Of a stretch of 14,340 bases of DNA, positions 1 through 9,000 are shown one piece after another. Numbering within the stretch: position 1 is the first letter of the stretch; the number at the start of each line of letters is the position of its first letter. A program made the position numbers. The stretch comes from Bdellovibrionales bacterium (lineage in GTDB: Bacteria; Bdellovibrionota; UBA1018; CAIMNF01): NCBI GenBank assembly GCA_040380025.1, contig JBEIJY010000040.1, forward strand, positions 1-14,340. The letters are read 5' to 3'.

Positions 1-3000
1 GACCTTGGTTTTTTCTTCGGCAGGGACTTTCTCGGCGCGTTCTTTCAGGGTTTTCTCGATCGAGTAGATTAGCCCGTCCAGGGTGTTCCGTGCGTTGACG
101 ACCTGCTTGCGCTTCTCGTCTTCGCTCTTGTGCTCTTCTGCCTCGCGCTGCATGCGCTTGATCTCTTCTTCGCTAAGACCGCTCGAAGCCGTGATCTTGA
201 TCGACTGCTCTTTGCCGGTTCCGAGGTCTTTTGCGCCGACGTGAACGATCCCGTTCGCGTCGATGTCAAAAGTCACCTCGATTTGCGGCATTCCGCGCGG
301 AGCCGCGGGAATTCCCACGAGGTCAAAGCGTCCGAGCGACTTGTTGTGCTCGGCGAACTCGCGCTCACCCTGCAAGCAGTGGATGGTCACGGCGGTCTGG
401 CTGTCGGCCGCGGTCGAGAACACCTGGGACTTCTTGGTCGGGATGGTGGTGTTTTTTTCGATGAGCTTCGTGAACACTCCGCCCATGGTCTCGATTCCGA
501 GAGAGAGGGGAGTGACATCGAGAAGAAGCACGTCCTTCACTTCGCCCTTCAGGACTCCGCCTTGGATGGCGGCGCCCACAGCGACGACTTCATCGGGGTT
601 CACGCCCTTGTGGGGTTCTTTGCCGAAGATCTCTTTTACTTTTGCCTGAACGCGCGGCATGCGGGTCATCCCGCCGACCAGGATCACCTCGTCGATTTTG
701 TCCTTCGTGAGGCCGGCATCTTTCAGTGCGGTCTCGCAAGGACCTGCAAGCGCCTGAATGAGCGGGTCAACGAGTTGCTCAAGCTTCGAGCGCGAGAGCT
801 TCAGGTTCAGGTGTTTCGGGCCCGAGGCATCGGCAGTGATGAACGGCAGATTGATGTCGGTTTCGACCATCGACGAGAGCTCATGCTTCGCTTTCTCGGC
901 CGCTTCCTTCAGGCGCTGGAGCGCCATTTTGTCCTGAAGCAGGTTGATGCCGGATTCTTTTTTGAACTCGTCTGCGATCCAGTCGATGATCTTCTGGTCG
1001 AAGTTCCCGCCGCCCAAAAAGGTGTCGCCGTTCGTTGCTTTGACTTCGAATACGCCGTCGCCGAGTTCCAACACCGACACGTCAAAGGTACCGCCGCCCA
1101 GGTCAAATACGGCGATGGTCATGTTCTTGCCTTGCTTGTCGAGGCCGTAGGCCAGGGCTGCGGCAGTCGGCTCGTTGATGATCCGCTTGACTTCGAGGCC
1201 CGCGATGCGGCCCGCGTCTTTGGTGGCCTGGCGCTGGGCATCGTTGAAGTAGGCCGGTACGGTCACAACGGCTTCGGTCACCGGTTCGCCCAAGTAGTCC
1301 TCGGCGGTTTTCTTCATTTTTTGGAGCACCATCGCGGAGATTTCCTGCGGAGCGTACTCGCGGTCGCCGACTTTCACCCAAGCGTCGCCGTTCTTGGCTT
1401 CTTGCACCTTGAAGGGCGTGACTTTCACGAATTCAGTGACTTCTTTTGAGTTGAACTTGCGGCCGATCAGGCGCTTCACTTCAAAAAGGGTTTTATCGGG
1501 GTTCGTGACGGCCTGGCGCTTTGCAGACTGACCCACGACTTTCTCGCCGTTCGGGAGGAATCCCACGATCGAGGGGGTGGTATTCGCGCCCTCGGCGTTT
1601 GCGATCACTTTCGGTTCGCCGCCTTCCAGCACAGAGACGCACGAGTTCGTGGTTCCCAAGTCAATTCCAATGATTTTTCCCATAATTTCTCCTTACTAAT
1701 ATGAACTGAGTCGTAAATGAATCTTTTCCCATAATCGTTAATGGGAAGGGTTCAGGGTTTGTCAAACAATCGAATTCGTTTTAGGGCCTGCCGAGAGCAA
1801 AACCCGCGCGGGGCGCAGAAGGCGTCCGTGCAGGGTGTAGCCCCGTTGTTGCTCCTGGACGATCGTGCCGGCCGGGAGGTCGTTCGGGAGCTGGCCCACG
1901 GCCTCATGAAGGTCGGGGTTGAAGGCCTGGCCCGAAGTCGGAATCGCAGCAACGCCCTGTTTTTCGAGGGTGGCTTTGAATTGCTGCGAGACCATTTTGA
2001 TGCCATCGACCAGGGCCGGGTCGGCATCGGGTTTCGCGAACAGGAGCGCGCGCTCGAAGTTGTCGAGGATCTCGAGCAAATCGAGAGCCGTGTTCTTCCA
2101 GCCGAATTTCGCGGCTTCTTGTTGCTCGCGGATTGCGCGCTTTTTGAAGTTCTCGAATTCGGCGTAGAGATAAATGTGCTTTTGCTCGGCGTCCTTCAGG
2201 CGCTTTTCGAGCTCGGCCACGGGGGTGGCCTGGGCTTCGGGCACTACGGATTCCGGAGCGGTTTGCTCGGGTGCGGGATTGGGTTGATCTTGCATGATCC
2301 GCTCAATATGGTGCGGGTTTGCGAGTTGGCAAGGGGGCGAGTTGGAATTTTTTGCAATCGCACGCTTTGGCTGTTCTTTTCTAGGCGGGAAATGGGGAAA
2401 GACCCTTGGAATAATTCCGTTTTTACCTCCGAGCCGCGTCGTGCGGCCTCGCTTTCGCGTTCGCCTACGCGTCCTGCTCCGGCGTGCGATGCACCACACG
2501 CCTCGGCTCATGCCTCGGCGTCACGCGCTCGCGAGAGACAGCCAAAGCGTACCGGTTGAAAAATTCCAGCGAGCCTCTCGCTCACTTCAACAGCCGCGAG
2601 CAGGTGTCGCGATCGAGCTCCTGAAGCCGCGTCTTCACCGCCTCGGGCGAGTGCTCCCCGGCGAACGCCGACCGCGCCTCGGGGCTCATCGCCTCGACCT
2701 CGGCCTTGACCTCGAGGAATCGCTTGCCCGAGATCTCGCCATGCTGAAGAAGCTCATGCGCGACCTTGTATTCGAGCGTCCAGTTCTCGACGATGAAGTC
2801 GCGCGCCCGTTCGCGTGCAATCGAAAGTTCCCGGCTGGCGAAGTCCTGAAACAGCTTCTGCTGGGACTCATTAAAGACCGCATTCCCCTGATCATCGAGC
2901 TTCGCACCCATGAGCTCGGGCACGAGGCCCCACTGGGTCGCGGCACGGGTCAAGAGTCTGCGCTCTTCCAAAAGATCTCCCGCCTGGCCCGAGTTCATCT

Positions 3001-6000: not shown

Positions 6001-9000
6001 GGACTCCGGCCGGAAGATCGCCCTGAAGGAGGCGTGCTGCGATTCCCTCGACCACGGACGACTTGCCAACGCCAGTCTCGCCCAAAATCACGGGCGCTTT
6101 GCCCTTCAAGCGCAAGAGCACATCGATTGCGGTGTTGATCTCGGTGTCGCGTGCGACGATCGGAGTGAATTTGCCTTCGCGCTGGCGCTTTTGAATGTCC
6201 TCGGTCAGGACCACGAGCGCTCCTTGCTTCAGCTGCTCGGCTTTGTCGCTCTTCCAGGCGCCCAAAAAGCGCTGAAGGCGGATCTCTGAAATCCCCGCTT
6301 CTCGCACGACAGAAGGAGCCGCATTCGGAGTCGTGACGAGGTCTTTCAGTTCGGGGCGGGGAGTCGGGGGTACGGGGCGGGATTTGGCGGCCGCATAGCC
6401 CCGTTTTGCCGCGTCGATCATGCTCTCGATCTCGGGGTGATCGGGGTAGGAGGTTCGAAGCTCCGAGATCAGCCACTGAAAGAACACGATTTCATCGGAT
6501 ACCGAGATGCTTCCGAGCACATCCGTCCAGGCGATGATCGTCCGCGAGTCGAGCACCACGGCCTGGCTTTCGTGCAGGAGCTGTTTTCGGGCGAGGTCGT
6601 ACACCTCACGAAAATTCCGCCCCTTCAACGAGCGAATCTGCGCGAGCACATGGTCGGGATCGTTCGCGTACGAGGTGTGGCTTAAAAACTCGATCGTGGA
6701 GTTCAGTTGATCCGGATTCAGCTGGGCCAGGGCCCGTGAGCCCGAACCGGTTGAAAGGACGCTGATGGCTAAAAAAACGAAAGCGGCAAAACGAAGTTTG
6801 CGGACCGTGTTCATGGAGTTCCCCCTCCGGTCAGCGACATTAGTAGCGCTCGGGGGAAAATTCAAAAGGTTTGGTTCACGGCGGTGTGAATTTTTTCTGA
6901 TAAACAAATTGAATTGAAAAACCCCCAAGTCGTTCTCTCTGTCTGTGCTTGATTTGGTTTCTGGATGCGGGAGTGGGCGGAAAATCATTCGGGTTTCGCC
7001 TCCGAGCCGCGTCCTGCGGCCTCGCTTGCGGCTGTCCTGCCTCGCGAGAGTCGGCGAAACAGGAATGATTCTCCACCCCCTCCCTCATCCAGTCTCATGA
7101 ATCAAGCGCAGTCAATCAGGCCAGTTTGGATTTGCCTCTACGAGAGCTCCCGCACGAGCGAATCGCTCATCGCGAATCCCCGCGCCGTCGCCCGAAGATG
7201 CCCCGGGCTTGTGGGGTGGGGCTCAAGGAGTCCGTGCGCAAGAAGCGTCTCGGACTTCTTCTTTTGCGCGTCGGTTTTCAGCCAGGAATCGGGGAAGCCT
7301 TCTGACAGGCGGATCGCCAGCATCCAGCGTTCGAGCTCGATTTGCGAATCGCTCAAGGTCTCGGTCCATTCGACGGGAAGGGTTTTTTCTTCGAGGAGCG
7401 CGCGCGCATACCGATGGAGCGACGAGAAGTTCTTGAACCGCGCACGGGACTCGCTCGAGTACGAGTGCGCCGACGGCCCGAACGACAAATAGGAGCCACC
7501 GGTCCAGTACACGAGGTTGTGTCGGGCACGGCCTCCGGGGCGCGCGAAGTTCGAGATCTCGTAGTGTTCAAACCCGCGTGCCTGTAAAAACGAGTCAATG
7601 AGGAGCAGGTGCTCGAGCTGTTCTTCTTCGCGCGGGAGCTCGCGGTACATGGCGTGGTGGGGCGGAAGAGTCAGAAGGTACACCGAGAGGTGCTGAATCG
7701 GAAACTCCGCGAGACGAATCAGGTGGGATTCGAGATCGGCAAGGCTCTGCCCGGGCACGCCACAGAGGAGATCGGTGGAAACATTCGAAAACCCCGAGCG
7801 AAACACCGTCTCGAGCGCCGTAAGCGCCCCTTGCTCGGAATGAACGCGTCCCAAACGAAGGAGAGTTTCGTCTTTTAAGCTCTGCACACCCATGCTGACG
7901 CGATTGATTCCAAAAGAGCGATAGGCCTTGAAGTTCTCGTACGAGATCGAAGAGGGGTTCGCTTCCATCGTCCATTCGATCGACGAAGAGAGCGGGGCAT
8001 GGGTAAGAAGAGTCTGAATGATCCGCTCCATCGAGGCGGGAGGGGTCATGCTCGGGGTCCCGCCTCCAAAAAAGATCGTCTCGATCGGGAGCGAGAGCAA
8101 GCCATCGCGCCCGCGAAGGTCAATTTCTTGTCGGAGCGCCTGCTCGAAAAGGTCCGGGTCGGAGGGTTTGGTCTTCTCGCGGCCGATCGAATAAAAGTCG
8201 CAGTAATGGCACTTGGCCTCGCAAAACGGAAAATGAAAATACAGCGATCGGGCGGGAGCGAGAGGGGAAAGCATGGCGGGATTAAACCCCGCCGAAGGGG
8301 AAGTGTCAAACCAATGGCGTGAAATCGGCGGTTTTTGCGGGAATTCCGGCGAAAAATCAATTTCTTTTTTGCCTTCTGTCGAAGCTTCGATACAATTTTG
8401 ATTGGCCCCCCTCCAGAAAAGGACTTCTGGAGCCGAAATGACATACTGAGGAGCTCGCTCATGTCAAAGACCTTGAAAAGCACGATGCTGACCATCTTCG
8501 CCTTCCCTCTCTTTTTGTTTCTGGGTGTCCCGGTGGCGCAGGCGCAGAAAGAGGTGTTTAGTTGCCCGGATGGAGGGTGCTCTGTTTTCAAAGCTGGAGA
8601 TTTTTGCAAGTCAGGTGAAGAATATCGGTACATAGAGGGATGCGTTATAAAAAAGAAGAAATATGTCTTGAAGCATCGGCGCGCAACCCCGCAAGAGTTG
8701 ATCCAAGCTGGAATATATAAAGAAAATGTAACCATCGTTGATGTCGGCAAGACTACTCCGGGGCAAGGAGATAACGACAACGAAAATGGCGGTAGCGGCA
8801 ATGAAAGCTCCTGCCGGTGCCATTACTCGTGGTGTCACTACCTATGTCGGAAGAGTTCCACTGGAGTGAGTGGTGACTATTGTGAGCACCTGGAAGCAAT
8901 TGGGGATATGAAAGAGGATCGATTAAAAGATCTTAAGGGTGCCCAAAAGCCAGTAGATAGAAATAGCGATTATCTTTCGGAATGCCGAGATGCGTGCGCT

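Follow-up and report, generated by a model that had tools for sequence, protein, structure and literature searches.

The gene at positions 2582-6814 (-) of the window, the whole 14,340 nt stretch of contig JBEIJY010000040.1 from a Bdellovibrionales bacterium analysed here, most likely codes for an exported, ATP-dependent, single-chain unfoldase-protease, a reading to which we assign a probability of roughly 0.55. From its N-terminus, the product comprises a predicted cleavable Sec signal peptide, a helical N-domain, three Clp/Hsp100-type ATPase modules (D1, D2 and D3), a beta linker and an M41 protease (Table 1). No published description of this protein family was found in the literature searched.

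Gene and domain organization

The open reading frame contains 1410 codons plus the stop, and its translation reproduces the product length given in the first-pass annotation of this genome. A ribosome binding site (GGAGGGGG) ends 6 nt upstream of the ATG at 6814 (-), and homologues spanning the full length of the gene share 50-69 % identity with it. A longer frame, up to 6988, was rejected because it enters a repeat element and is unsupported.

Table 1. Features of the protease gene and of its upstream region, in window coordinates; residues are those of the 1410-aa product.
Feature	Position	Strand	Remarks
Long palindromic repeat element	6940..7114		Nested arms of 40 nt and 15 nt; within the 323-nt gap
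Predicted cleavable Sec signal peptide, residues 1-30	6725..6814	-	n-region R5, K6, R8; core 9-21; ALA/Q site at 28-30/31
All-helical N-domain and low-confidence Pro-rich linker, residues 31-160	6335..6724	-	Six helices in the model
AAA+ module D1 (Clp D1 type), residues 198-470	5405..6223	-	Colinear with ClpB 151-402
AAA+ module D2 (Clp D2 type, D2-small lid), residues 482-775	4490..5371	-	Pfam; ClpB 554-825
AAA+ module D3 (second D2 type), residues 830-1125	3440..4327	-	Pfam; TssH 554-837; model
Small beta-sheet linker between D3 and protease, residues 1130-1185	3260..3427	-	No named family; conserved in the family
M41 (FtsH-type) zinc protease domain, residues 1196-1383	2666..3229	-	Pfam; FtsH 2dhr 286-476
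Helical C-terminal tail and stop, residues 1384-1410	2582..2665	-	Invariant Cys1405

A Pfam search recovered the domains listed in the first-pass annotation, namely AAA_22/AAA_16 (residues 219-355), AAA (524-623), ClpB_D2-small (712-771), AAA_2 (873-1047) and Peptidase_M41 (PF01434, 1199-1343), the latter with 51.6 bits (cut-off 29.9). The catalytic motifs are also where they had been placed, with Walker A at 245, 527 and 879, Walker B acids DE at 602/603 and 951/952, I-E-N instead of DE in the first module, and HEAGH at 1203-1207. AlphaFold models were confident (pLDDT 96 and 94), with a pLDDT of 96.1 and a pTM of 0.90 for the model of residues 830-1410. The model of the N-domain had a pLDDT of 84-98, down to 52 at model residues 131-140; this domain showed no match to Pfam (including Clp_N, PF02861) or to PDB sequences, and a weak Clp_N-like match in the Atlas (score 0.79).

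Module D1 contains a Walker A motif (GETGVGKS, 245-252) and a degenerate Walker B (ILVIEN, 324-329), in which the acid pair is E328-N329 and the catalytic glutamate is missing. The pair is [E/D][N/H/Q/E] in the close clade, with D-E retained by most distant relatives. With its Walker B glutamate replaced, D1 of this clade probably binds nucleotide without being able to hydrolyse it. A STAND-like sensor role, contemplated earlier for this module, is at odds with its model, which matches the D1 of ClpC1 (9if4_A, Z 26.6, rmsd 2.6, 262 aligned), ClpA (Z 23.2) and ClpB (NBD1, Z 22.4); its weak STAND matches arise because the P-loop is shared.

Modules D2 and D3 are colinear, with 21 % identity, and each has a full set of key residues: K533, the pore loop GYLG (574-577), D602, E603, N644, R700 and R760 in D2, and K885, GYVG (926-929), D951, E952, N1001, R1045 and R1105 in D3. 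The linker that follows forms three strands (model residues 308-317, 332-341 and 344-352; pLDDT 95-98). The zinc site of the protease comprises H1203, E1204 and H1207 of HEAGH, plus D1280, which we take to be the third ligand, equivalent to the Asp of the GxxxD motif in FtsH structures.

Genomic context

The gene order hemW, protease gene, grpE and dnaK on one strand is as previously annotated, with a radical-SAM (hemW-like) gene at 7138-8274, separated from the protease gene by 323 nt. Two other early observations also held: besides this gene, the genome carries two M41 genes, with frames of 634 and 859 aa, where two normal FtsH genes had been reported, and no match to the HrcA family appeared in this genome, which is 98 % complete.

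This arrangement, directly upstream of grpE-dnaK and on the same strand, would fit an alternative reading in which an uncleaved N-terminal anchor holds the domains facing the cytoplasm, and the protein acts as an FtsH-like protease for stress or quality control, regulated together with grpE-dnaK. A functional tie to grpE-dnaK was, however, not sustained by comparison with relatives. In two of the same genus (G094 and G025), hemW directly adjoins grpE, only 27 nt away, and the junction is occupied in other relatives by unrelated genes, coding for a DEAD-box helicase or a GLUG protein; besides, homologues of the protease at 66-68 % identity lie in unrelated contexts. Also against co-regulation, a hairpin resembling a terminator overlaps the protease gene at its stop codon; 287 nt further on, grpE probably has a start of its own. 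The palindromic repeat (folding energy -56.4 kcal/mol, z -8.65) has 44 more matches elsewhere in the genome; it belongs to the inserted segment and lies outside the protein. The protease gene is an insertion at a variable junction, with no conserved link to grpE-dnaK.

The N-terminus and predicted export

The first-pass annotation described an N-terminal membrane anchor, with the caveat that it might be a cleaved signal peptide. The hydrophobic stretch does exist, but the caveat has proved the better reading, since signal-peptide features extend across the family and no second membrane segment accompanies them. Signal peptides were scored with a heuristic of our own. By it, the 1410-aa protein has the marks of a Sec signal peptidase I substrate, namely a positive n-region, a hydrophobic core, and positions -3 and -1 occupied by small residues. 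In its strict form, the heuristic was passed by 76 of 102 full-length relatives versus one of 93 cytoplasmic ClpA/B-type controls, and that single control looks like a false positive. Small residues occupy -3 and -1 behind the hydrophobic core in all 11 aligned close relatives. Several of the 26 full-length members that failed the strict test resemble signal peptides or truncated starts at their N-terminus, as with P0005, which is complete in its genome (L099).

In favour of the cytoplasmic reading, intact ATPase sites are in keeping with the one compartment that offers ATP, the cytoplasm, and the hydrophobic run, with a median of 20 uncharged residues, could span a membrane. Several features argue against it. 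Of the 92 members that have a hydrophobic core, 87 carry more positive charge on its N-flank than on its C-flank, a bias predicting an N-in/C-out orientation, and no later segment that would return the chain to the inside was found in any of 102 members, the 1410-aa protein included, when a membrane-like 19-mer was sought after residue 70. Moreover, AXA-type sites follow the core in family members, and P0117, P0133 and P0252 have variants resembling a lipobox. Export is further favoured by the sole recurrent neighbour of the family, seen at 6 of 21 loci and forming one chain with the protease in P0212: it, too, has a signal peptide, together with an FGE-sulfatase-type domain. Across the family, the N-terminus thus resembles a cleavable Sec signal peptide rather than the anchor of a cytoplasmic enzyme, and we consider a cytoplasmic, grpE-linked protease unlikely.

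Distribution and conservation of the family

The family comprises 153 cluster representatives at E<=1e-10, most of them 1100-1650 aa long, making the former figure of about 36 clusters an underestimate; 13 clusters share at least 50 % identity with the 1410-aa protein. All labelled members are from Bdellovibrionota, where the family is present in 37 of 401 genomes and has no copy in one family of 100 genomes. This distribution and the variable junction support the patchy spread and accessory role that had been suggested. Both AAA_2 and Peptidase_M41 scored above cut-off in 30 of 30 diverse relatives.

Residues of the ATPase and protease sites hardly vary, each being retained in 97-103 of 103 diverged relatives. 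In D3 these are the Walker A lysine (103), the Walker B aspartate (97) and glutamate (100), the sensor-1 asparagine (101), the arginine finger (102) and the sensor-2 arginine (102); in D2, the lysine (102), the glutamate (100), the sensor-1 asparagine (100) and the two arginines (100 and 98); and in the protease, the two histidines (103 and 102), the glutamate (102) and the aspartate (101). In D2, Asn takes the place of the first Walker B acid in 71 of the 103, and the pore-loop aromatics are moderately conserved, with Y in 37 for D2 and Y or F in 59 for D3.

The periplasm is commonly regarded as free of ATP, which makes an exported ATPase paradoxical. One solution would be a periplasmic protein not run by ATP, whose pre-assembled AAA+ tiers act as a holdase or scaffold and may take up nucleotide in the course of export or ahead of it, and whose M41 domain cuts unfolded envelope proteins without energy. 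The export signals, the loss of the D1 catalytic glutamate in this clade, the Asn in D2 and the weak conservation of the pore-loop aromatics are all compatible with it. Nevertheless, the residues retained in D3 (Walker A lysine, Walker B acids, sensors and arginine finger) and in D2 (glutamate, sensor 1 and both arginines) include those for hydrolysis and not just for binding, a pattern not easily accounted for unless ATP is turned over, and we regard such an energy-independent enzyme as quite improbable. Since both sets of active-site residues are nearly invariant, an exported protease dependent on ATP is therefore the most likely reading.

The patchy distribution and the insertion at a variable junction would also suit an anti-phage or other conflict system, with an AAA+ sensor activating a protease effector. 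In addition, D3 has PADLOC matches among the ATPases of candidate defence systems (PDC-M37B, E 3e-31; DolB, E 3.5e-16), and Atlas clusters combining M41 and ClpB_D2-small hold many viral members. The PADLOC matches, however, are limited to the AAA_2 core (residues 827-1011), and a signal peptide is not expected in a cytoplasmic phage sensor. Viral contigs yielded no close relative among the 80 loci covered (of 176 relatives), which match the M41 part only, except for L133, a cytoplasmic single-AAA form. Neighbours that could form a system do not recur either, with the exception of the secreted FGE-domain protein. A role in conflict thus appears highly improbable.

Proposed mode of action

Returning to the exported ATP-dependent protease, hydrolysis and pore-loop motifs are complete in D2 and D3. 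By analogy with Hsp100 proteins and FtsH, the protein would assemble into a ring, most likely a hexamer, with three ATPase tiers stacked over a protease chamber, and substrates would be threaded from D1 through D2 to D3 and cleaved at the zinc site formed by HEAGH and Asp1280. The export features, together with strongly constrained ATPase sites, point therefore to action where ATP exists outside the cytoplasm of the producer, most plausibly in or on another cell, such as prey, or in a compartment receiving prey contents. Predation by the carriers is here an assumption drawn from taxonomic labels. We tentatively propose, as a possibility that we still hold to be doubtful, that Bdellovibrio-like bacteria secrete a complete ATP-driven unfoldase-protease that assembles in or on another cell and, using that cell's ATP, unfolds and digests its proteins; the secreted FGE-domain partner may help in targeting. 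If this were true, a bacterial AAA+ protease would for the first time have been shown to act outside the cytoplasm of its producer, and it would represent a novel type of effector in predation or competition.

Comparison with known systems

The first-pass annotation proposed a new type of architecture, with Hsp100-type AAA+ modules stacked on an intact FtsH-type M41 domain in a single chain; our results support this composition, which as a whole matches no curated family at its cut-off. As in FtsH, an ATPase and an M41 zinc protease share one chain, with HEXXH and a downstream Asp ligand. The protease model has the fold of FtsH (2di4_B, Z 16.1, rmsd 3.2, 166 aligned), and D3 plus protease superpose roughly on cytosolic FtsH (4ww0_A, Z 15.8, rmsd 5.9, 382 aligned). 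Unlike FtsH, the protein lacks the paired N-terminal membrane helices flanking a periplasmic domain, and has three ATPase tiers where FtsH has one, a beta linker before the protease and a predicted signal peptide. The module preceding the protease is of the Clp D2 type (AAA_2 plus D2-small) and not a classical FtsH AAA: the best structural matches of D3 are Clp D2 modules at Z 25-26 (7xbk, Z 26.0; 6e10, Z 25.5; 4lj4, Z 25.4; 1ksf, Z 25.3; from CLPB, HSP101, ClpB and ClpA), versus Z 16 for the AAA-protease pair of FtsH. The FtsH equivalog TIGR01241 scored 45.9 bits against a cut-off of 600, over the protease part only.

With class I Clp/Hsp100 proteins (ClpA, ClpC, ClpB/Hsp104), it shares D1 and D2 colinear with those of ClpA/ClpB, the D2-small lid, folds matching at Z 22-27, GYxG pore loops and the sensor and arginine motifs. 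It differs from them in its third module, a second of the D2 type, in the fusion to its protease instead of a separate ClpP, in the D1 of this clade without a Walker B glutamate, and in having no Pfam Clp_N match and a predicted signal for export; the D1 model (ca. 270 residues) contains no coiled-coil middle domain of the ClpB/Hsp104 type. Equivalog scores were below cut-off for ClpB (229.6 vs 1232.1), ClpA (222.9 vs 993.15) and TssH (226.3 vs 884.95). Lon is likewise an unfoldase fused to a protease in one polypeptide, and its AAA matches at Z 17-18, but it is cytoplasmic, with a Ser-Lys protease and a single ATPase tier.

Shorter unnamed proteins joining a D2-type AAA and M41 exist in other bacteria and phages (Atlas clusters of 580-940 aa with M41 and AAA_2 or ClpB_D2-small, scores 0.90-0.92), none of which we found described in print. 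One of them, of 671 aa and from a 461-kb viral contig, aligns to residues 1-340 of a 371-aa C-terminal query with 21 % identity. These proteins differ in having one or two ATPase modules, and the two inspected, L133 and P0256, lack a signal peptide; in P0256, a classical FtsH AAA adjoins the protease.

For an Hsp100-type ATPase outside the cytoplasm of its producer, which is what the predicted export would imply here, a parallel is HSP101 of the Plasmodium PTEX translocon, which carries a signal sequence and functions in the parasitophorous vacuole. Its structure (6e10) matches D1 as well as D3, at Z 17.6 in the case of D1. HSP101 differs, however, in being eukaryotic, with two ATPase tiers and without a protease domain, and in translocating its substrates rather than degrading them.

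Domain organisation and predicted folds

The best-supported reading of the AAA-M41 protein is that of an exported single-chain AAA+ protease. Its gene encodes 1410 residues, with GGAGGGGG preceding the ATG at 6814 at a spacing of 6 nt; a longer frame reaching 6988 enters a palindromic repeat and was rejected as spurious. Searches against Pfam, NCBIfam and PDB sequences agreed on the layout tabulated below, bearing out the ORF and the Clp-type pair, third module and M41 domain described in the first-pass annotation. Equally correct there were the two ordinary FtsH-type M41 genes found besides the AAA-M41 gene in this 2.35 Mb, 98 % complete genome, and the absence of HrcA, for which the genome gave no match. 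The protein did not reach the curated equivalog cut-offs for ClpB (229.6 of 1232 bits), ClpA (222.9 of 993) or FtsH (45.9 of 600). Antisense to the gene lies a 1098-aa open frame, partly open in relatives too (41 % identity over 411 aa); it most likely reflects the high GC content of the coding strand and is no gene.

Coordinates of the AAA-M41 gene, its modules and associated features
Feature	Sequence	Coordinates	Remarks
AAA-M41 gene	window	2582-6814 (-)	
Helical N-domain	AAA-M41 protein	31-160	
Clp D1-like module (D1)	AAA-M41 protein	~198-470	Pfam, NCBIfam, PDB sequence search
D2-type module with ClpB_D2-small lid (D2)	AAA-M41 protein	482-775	Pfam, NCBIfam, PDB sequence search
Second D2-type module (D3)	AAA-M41 protein	830-1125	Pfam, NCBIfam, PDB sequence search
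Three-stranded beta linker	AAA-M41 protein	~1130-1185	model
M41 protease domain	AAA-M41 protein	1196-1383	Pfam, NCBIfam, PDB sequence search
Antisense open frame	window	2294-5590 (+)	most likely no gene
Palindromic element	window	6940-7114	between hemW and AAA-M41 gene
End of inserted segment	window	~2400-2470	just downstream of AAA-M41 gene
Promoter-like site	window	2332-2305	just upstream of grpE Met73
grpE start, Met73	window	2295	probable
grpE frame, doubtful part	window	2295-2511	frame probably too long
ORF with signal peptide	window	8335-10356 (+)	probable start Met43
Downstream secreted protein	L102	12059-15229	
Downstream secreted protein	L109	12109-15795	
Downstream secreted protein	L105	3777-5843	
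Downstream secreted proteins	L101	4415-5962 and 1080-2681	
Kinase-like protein	L106	783-5816 (-)	genome G283

Two parts of the protein were modelled from alignments of family members. In the model of residues 830-1410 (pLDDT 96.1, pTM 0.90), D3 matched human CLPB (7xbk, Z 26.0), Plasmodium HSP101 (6e10, Z 25.5), ClpB NBD2 (4lj4, Z 25.4) and ClpA (1ksf, Z 25.3), and the last domain matched the FtsH protease domain (2di4_B; Z 16.1, rmsd 3.2, 166 aligned); D3 and the protease, joined by a beta linker, together fitted cytosolic FtsH loosely (4ww0_A; Z 15.8, rmsd 5.9, 382 aligned). In the model of residues 31-480 (pLDDT 94.1), D1 matched ClpC1 (Z 26.6), ClpA (Z 23.2) and ClpB NBD1 (Z 22.4) and contained no coiled-coil middle domain. 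D2 aligns colinearly with D3 at 21 % identity. The N-domain gave no Pfam match and a weak Clp_N-like lead; since it had no PDB sequence match either and fold searches were dominated by D1, its fold was left without a name.

Predicted export

The N-terminus of the family appears to be a secretion signal, by which the protein would be exported. Each of the 11 close relatives in the alignment starts with a basic n-region followed by a hydrophobic core, after which positions -3 and -1 carry small residues (examples are ALA|Q, AFA|Q and ALA|G). A strict home-made heuristic for signal peptides was passed by 76 of the 102 full-length members, versus one of 93 ClpA/B-type control proteins, which proved a false positive on inspection. 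Several of the 26 members that failed resemble signal peptides or have truncated starts; P0005, for one, is complete at its genome locus (L099). Lipobox-like sites occur in a few members. A later membrane-like segment was found in none of the 102, which together with the signal-peptide features speaks against the membrane anchor proposed previously. Additionally, of the 92 members that have a hydrophobic core, 87 carry more positive charge on the N-flank than on the C-flank, an excess that predicts the protein body to lie outside; this bias and the lack of later membrane segments make an anchored enzyme facing the cytoplasm less likely.

A Tat signal was rejected as a family trait, twin arginines being present in just 2 of the 11 close relatives. 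Clp-like proteins without M41 (P0102-P0107) were likewise rejected as other exported ATPases, their N-termini not being signal peptides. The neighbour of one family member, at locus L106, is a 1677-aa protein that carries a signal peptide; its ABC1 atypical-kinase-like domain is another ATP-using domain that seems to be exported.

Conservation of catalytic residues and the energy problem

Conservation was counted in an alignment of 103 family members of at least 1000 aa. D3 keeps the Walker A Lys in all 103, the Walker B Asp in 97 and Glu in 100, the sensor-1 Asn in 101, and the Arg finger and sensor-2 Arg in 102 each. The corresponding figures for D2 are 102 (Lys), 100 (Glu), 100 (Asn), and 100 and 98 (Arg), its first Walker B acid being Asn in 71 and Asp in 30. 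D1 is present with its Walker A Lys in 73/103; most have D-E, replaced by E-N or similar in the window's clade, and D1 of the AAA-M41 protein therefore probably binds ATP without hydrolysing it. The M41 residues are His (103/103), Glu (102/103), His (102/103) and Asp (101/103). Pore-loop aromatics are less well kept (D2 Tyr in 37/103; D3 Tyr or Phe in 59/103).

That the hydrolysis residues hardly vary speaks for ATP turnover and renders a periplasmic protease working independently of ATP less likely. The periplasm is generally regarded as free of ATP, so that energy supply is a problem for an exported enzyme with such residues. By analogy, the exported protease would assemble into a ring in which three Clp-type tiers thread the substrate into an FtsH-type chamber; a complex prediction for four protease domains (1189-1410) was neutral on ring formation (median score 0.31, mark 0.42). 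We infer that the enzyme may act in or on another cell, where ATP is present, which would resolve the energy problem and fits the known lifestyle of the phylum. PADLOC matches, to the AAA part alone, would point to a component of a defence system, which we consider less likely than an exported protease.

Insertion at the hemW-grpE junction

The AAA-M41 gene lies between a radical-SAM (hemW-like) gene and grpE-dnaK, all on the same strand. It is an insertion, at a junction that varies among congeneric genomes (loci L121-L125): two of them, G094 and G025, have the order MFS - rpsA - unknown - hemW - grpE - dnaK with a hemW-grpE gap of 27 nt, G049 and G266 have a DEAD-box helicase at this point, and G173 has a GLUG-motif protein there. 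Homologues 66-68 % identical have unrelated surrounding genes. The inserted segment opens with a full copy of a nested palindromic element (175 nt, arms of 40 and 15 nt, branched tip; -56.4 kcal/mol, z -8.65), which has 44 further matches across the contigs of the genome, and its end holds ca. 45 nt of the palindrome core, folding poorly (z -0.54).

A terminator-like hairpin overlaps the AAA-M41 stop codon. The grpE frame, of 249 aa, is probably too long, because GrpE of relatives (~180-200 aa) aligns from residue ~57-80; a start at Met73 leaves 287 nt between the two genes. This gap contains a promoter-like site (TTGCCA, 16 nt, CATATT), which we take to resemble a heat-shock sigma-32 promoter, and no CIRCE operator was matched within the window with up to 3 mismatches. 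Since the gene is inserted at a variable junction, has homologues elsewhere, ends in a hairpin and is followed by grpE's own gap, without CIRCE, its heat-shock neighbourhood is coincidental; the previously noted gene order and common strand stand, but a functional tie to grpE-dnaK is not supported, the junction being empty in G094 and G025.

The window also contains an ORF without Pfam match, whose product has a signal peptide, one half rich in Cys, and a low-complexity tail rich in Gly, Tyr and Met. It lies within a patch of 44-51 % GC (genome ~58 %), and relatives have a gene 24-29 % identical in the same position.

Family distribution and a recurrent neighbour

A word-indexed search returned 12 further clusters with 50-72 % identity to the AAA-M41 protein. 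Exhaustive HMMER searching with residues 1040-1410 gave 687 matches at E<=1e-3, of which 153 reached E<=1e-10 and 31 reached E<=1e-30; most are proteins of 1100-1650 aa matched in their C-terminal part. AAA_2 and Peptidase_M41 were above cut-off in all 30 diverse members scanned, with two or three ATPase modules; member P0240, scanned separately, has one. Taxon labels, where given, were Bdellovibrionales, Pseudobdellovibrionaceae, Oligoflexia or 'Deltaproteobacteria bacterium'. Within the phylum, matches occurred in 37/401 genomes and 26/204 genera, including 3 of 14 other genomes of the genus and none of 100 in one family. At the same threshold, 0/301 Pseudomonadota genomes matched. In a third phylum 2/301 genomes did, both with matches of M41 length only (frames ~620 aa).

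A locus scan of genome contigs with a C-terminal alignment returned ordinary FtsH genes and nothing for the family, being swamped because its pattern was the shared HEAGHA motif; with one protein as query it gave no match. In viral contigs, among the best 80 loci of 176 relatives, the M41 part alone was matched in all but L133; of two loci inspected, L126 is an ordinary FtsH and L133 a single-AAA cytoplasmic relative.

The only recurrent neighbour of the family is a group of secreted proteins (515-1228 aa, signal peptide at the start) encoded directly downstream on the same strand at 6/21 loci. Pfam identified a C-terminal FGE-sulfatase-type domain in 2 of 5 scanned, and in the 2327-aa member P0212 an FGE-sulfatase domain is fused after the protease. 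In the window's genome, FGE-domain matches lie solely elsewhere (contigs C2 and C35).

Comparison with known proteases

Full-text searching, judged on titles and abstract openings, brought up no paper describing either a fusion of Clp/Hsp100 with M41 or a bacterial AAA+ protease that is exported, and M41, FtsH, AAA, ClpB and ATP-dependent do not occur in a Bdellovibrio proteome paper (PMC12546842). If active outside the cytoplasm, the enzyme would raise the testable question of an extracytoplasmic ATP source in bacteria and suggest that bacterial predators have a tool not recognised so far. Were it cytoplasmic, it would nonetheless form a new class of AAA+ protease, with three tiers in a single chain, in which the delivery of substrate from stacked ATPase rings to a protease could be studied.

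Energy-dependent proteases known to us (FtsH, Lon, ClpXP/AP/CP, HslUV and proteasome systems) all act where ATP is made. Like FtsH and Lon, the AAA-M41 protein fuses unfoldase to protease, and it shares stacked tiers with ClpAP. By the tests that define FtsH and class I Clp, it belongs to neither. Shorter proteins combining a D2-type AAA with M41 occur in other bacteria and phages, and the two inspected (L133, P0256) differ in having no signal peptide. The AAA-M41 family joins parts from two of the known protease types in a novel arrangement, in which an M41 chamber follows an Hsp100 stack in the same chain.
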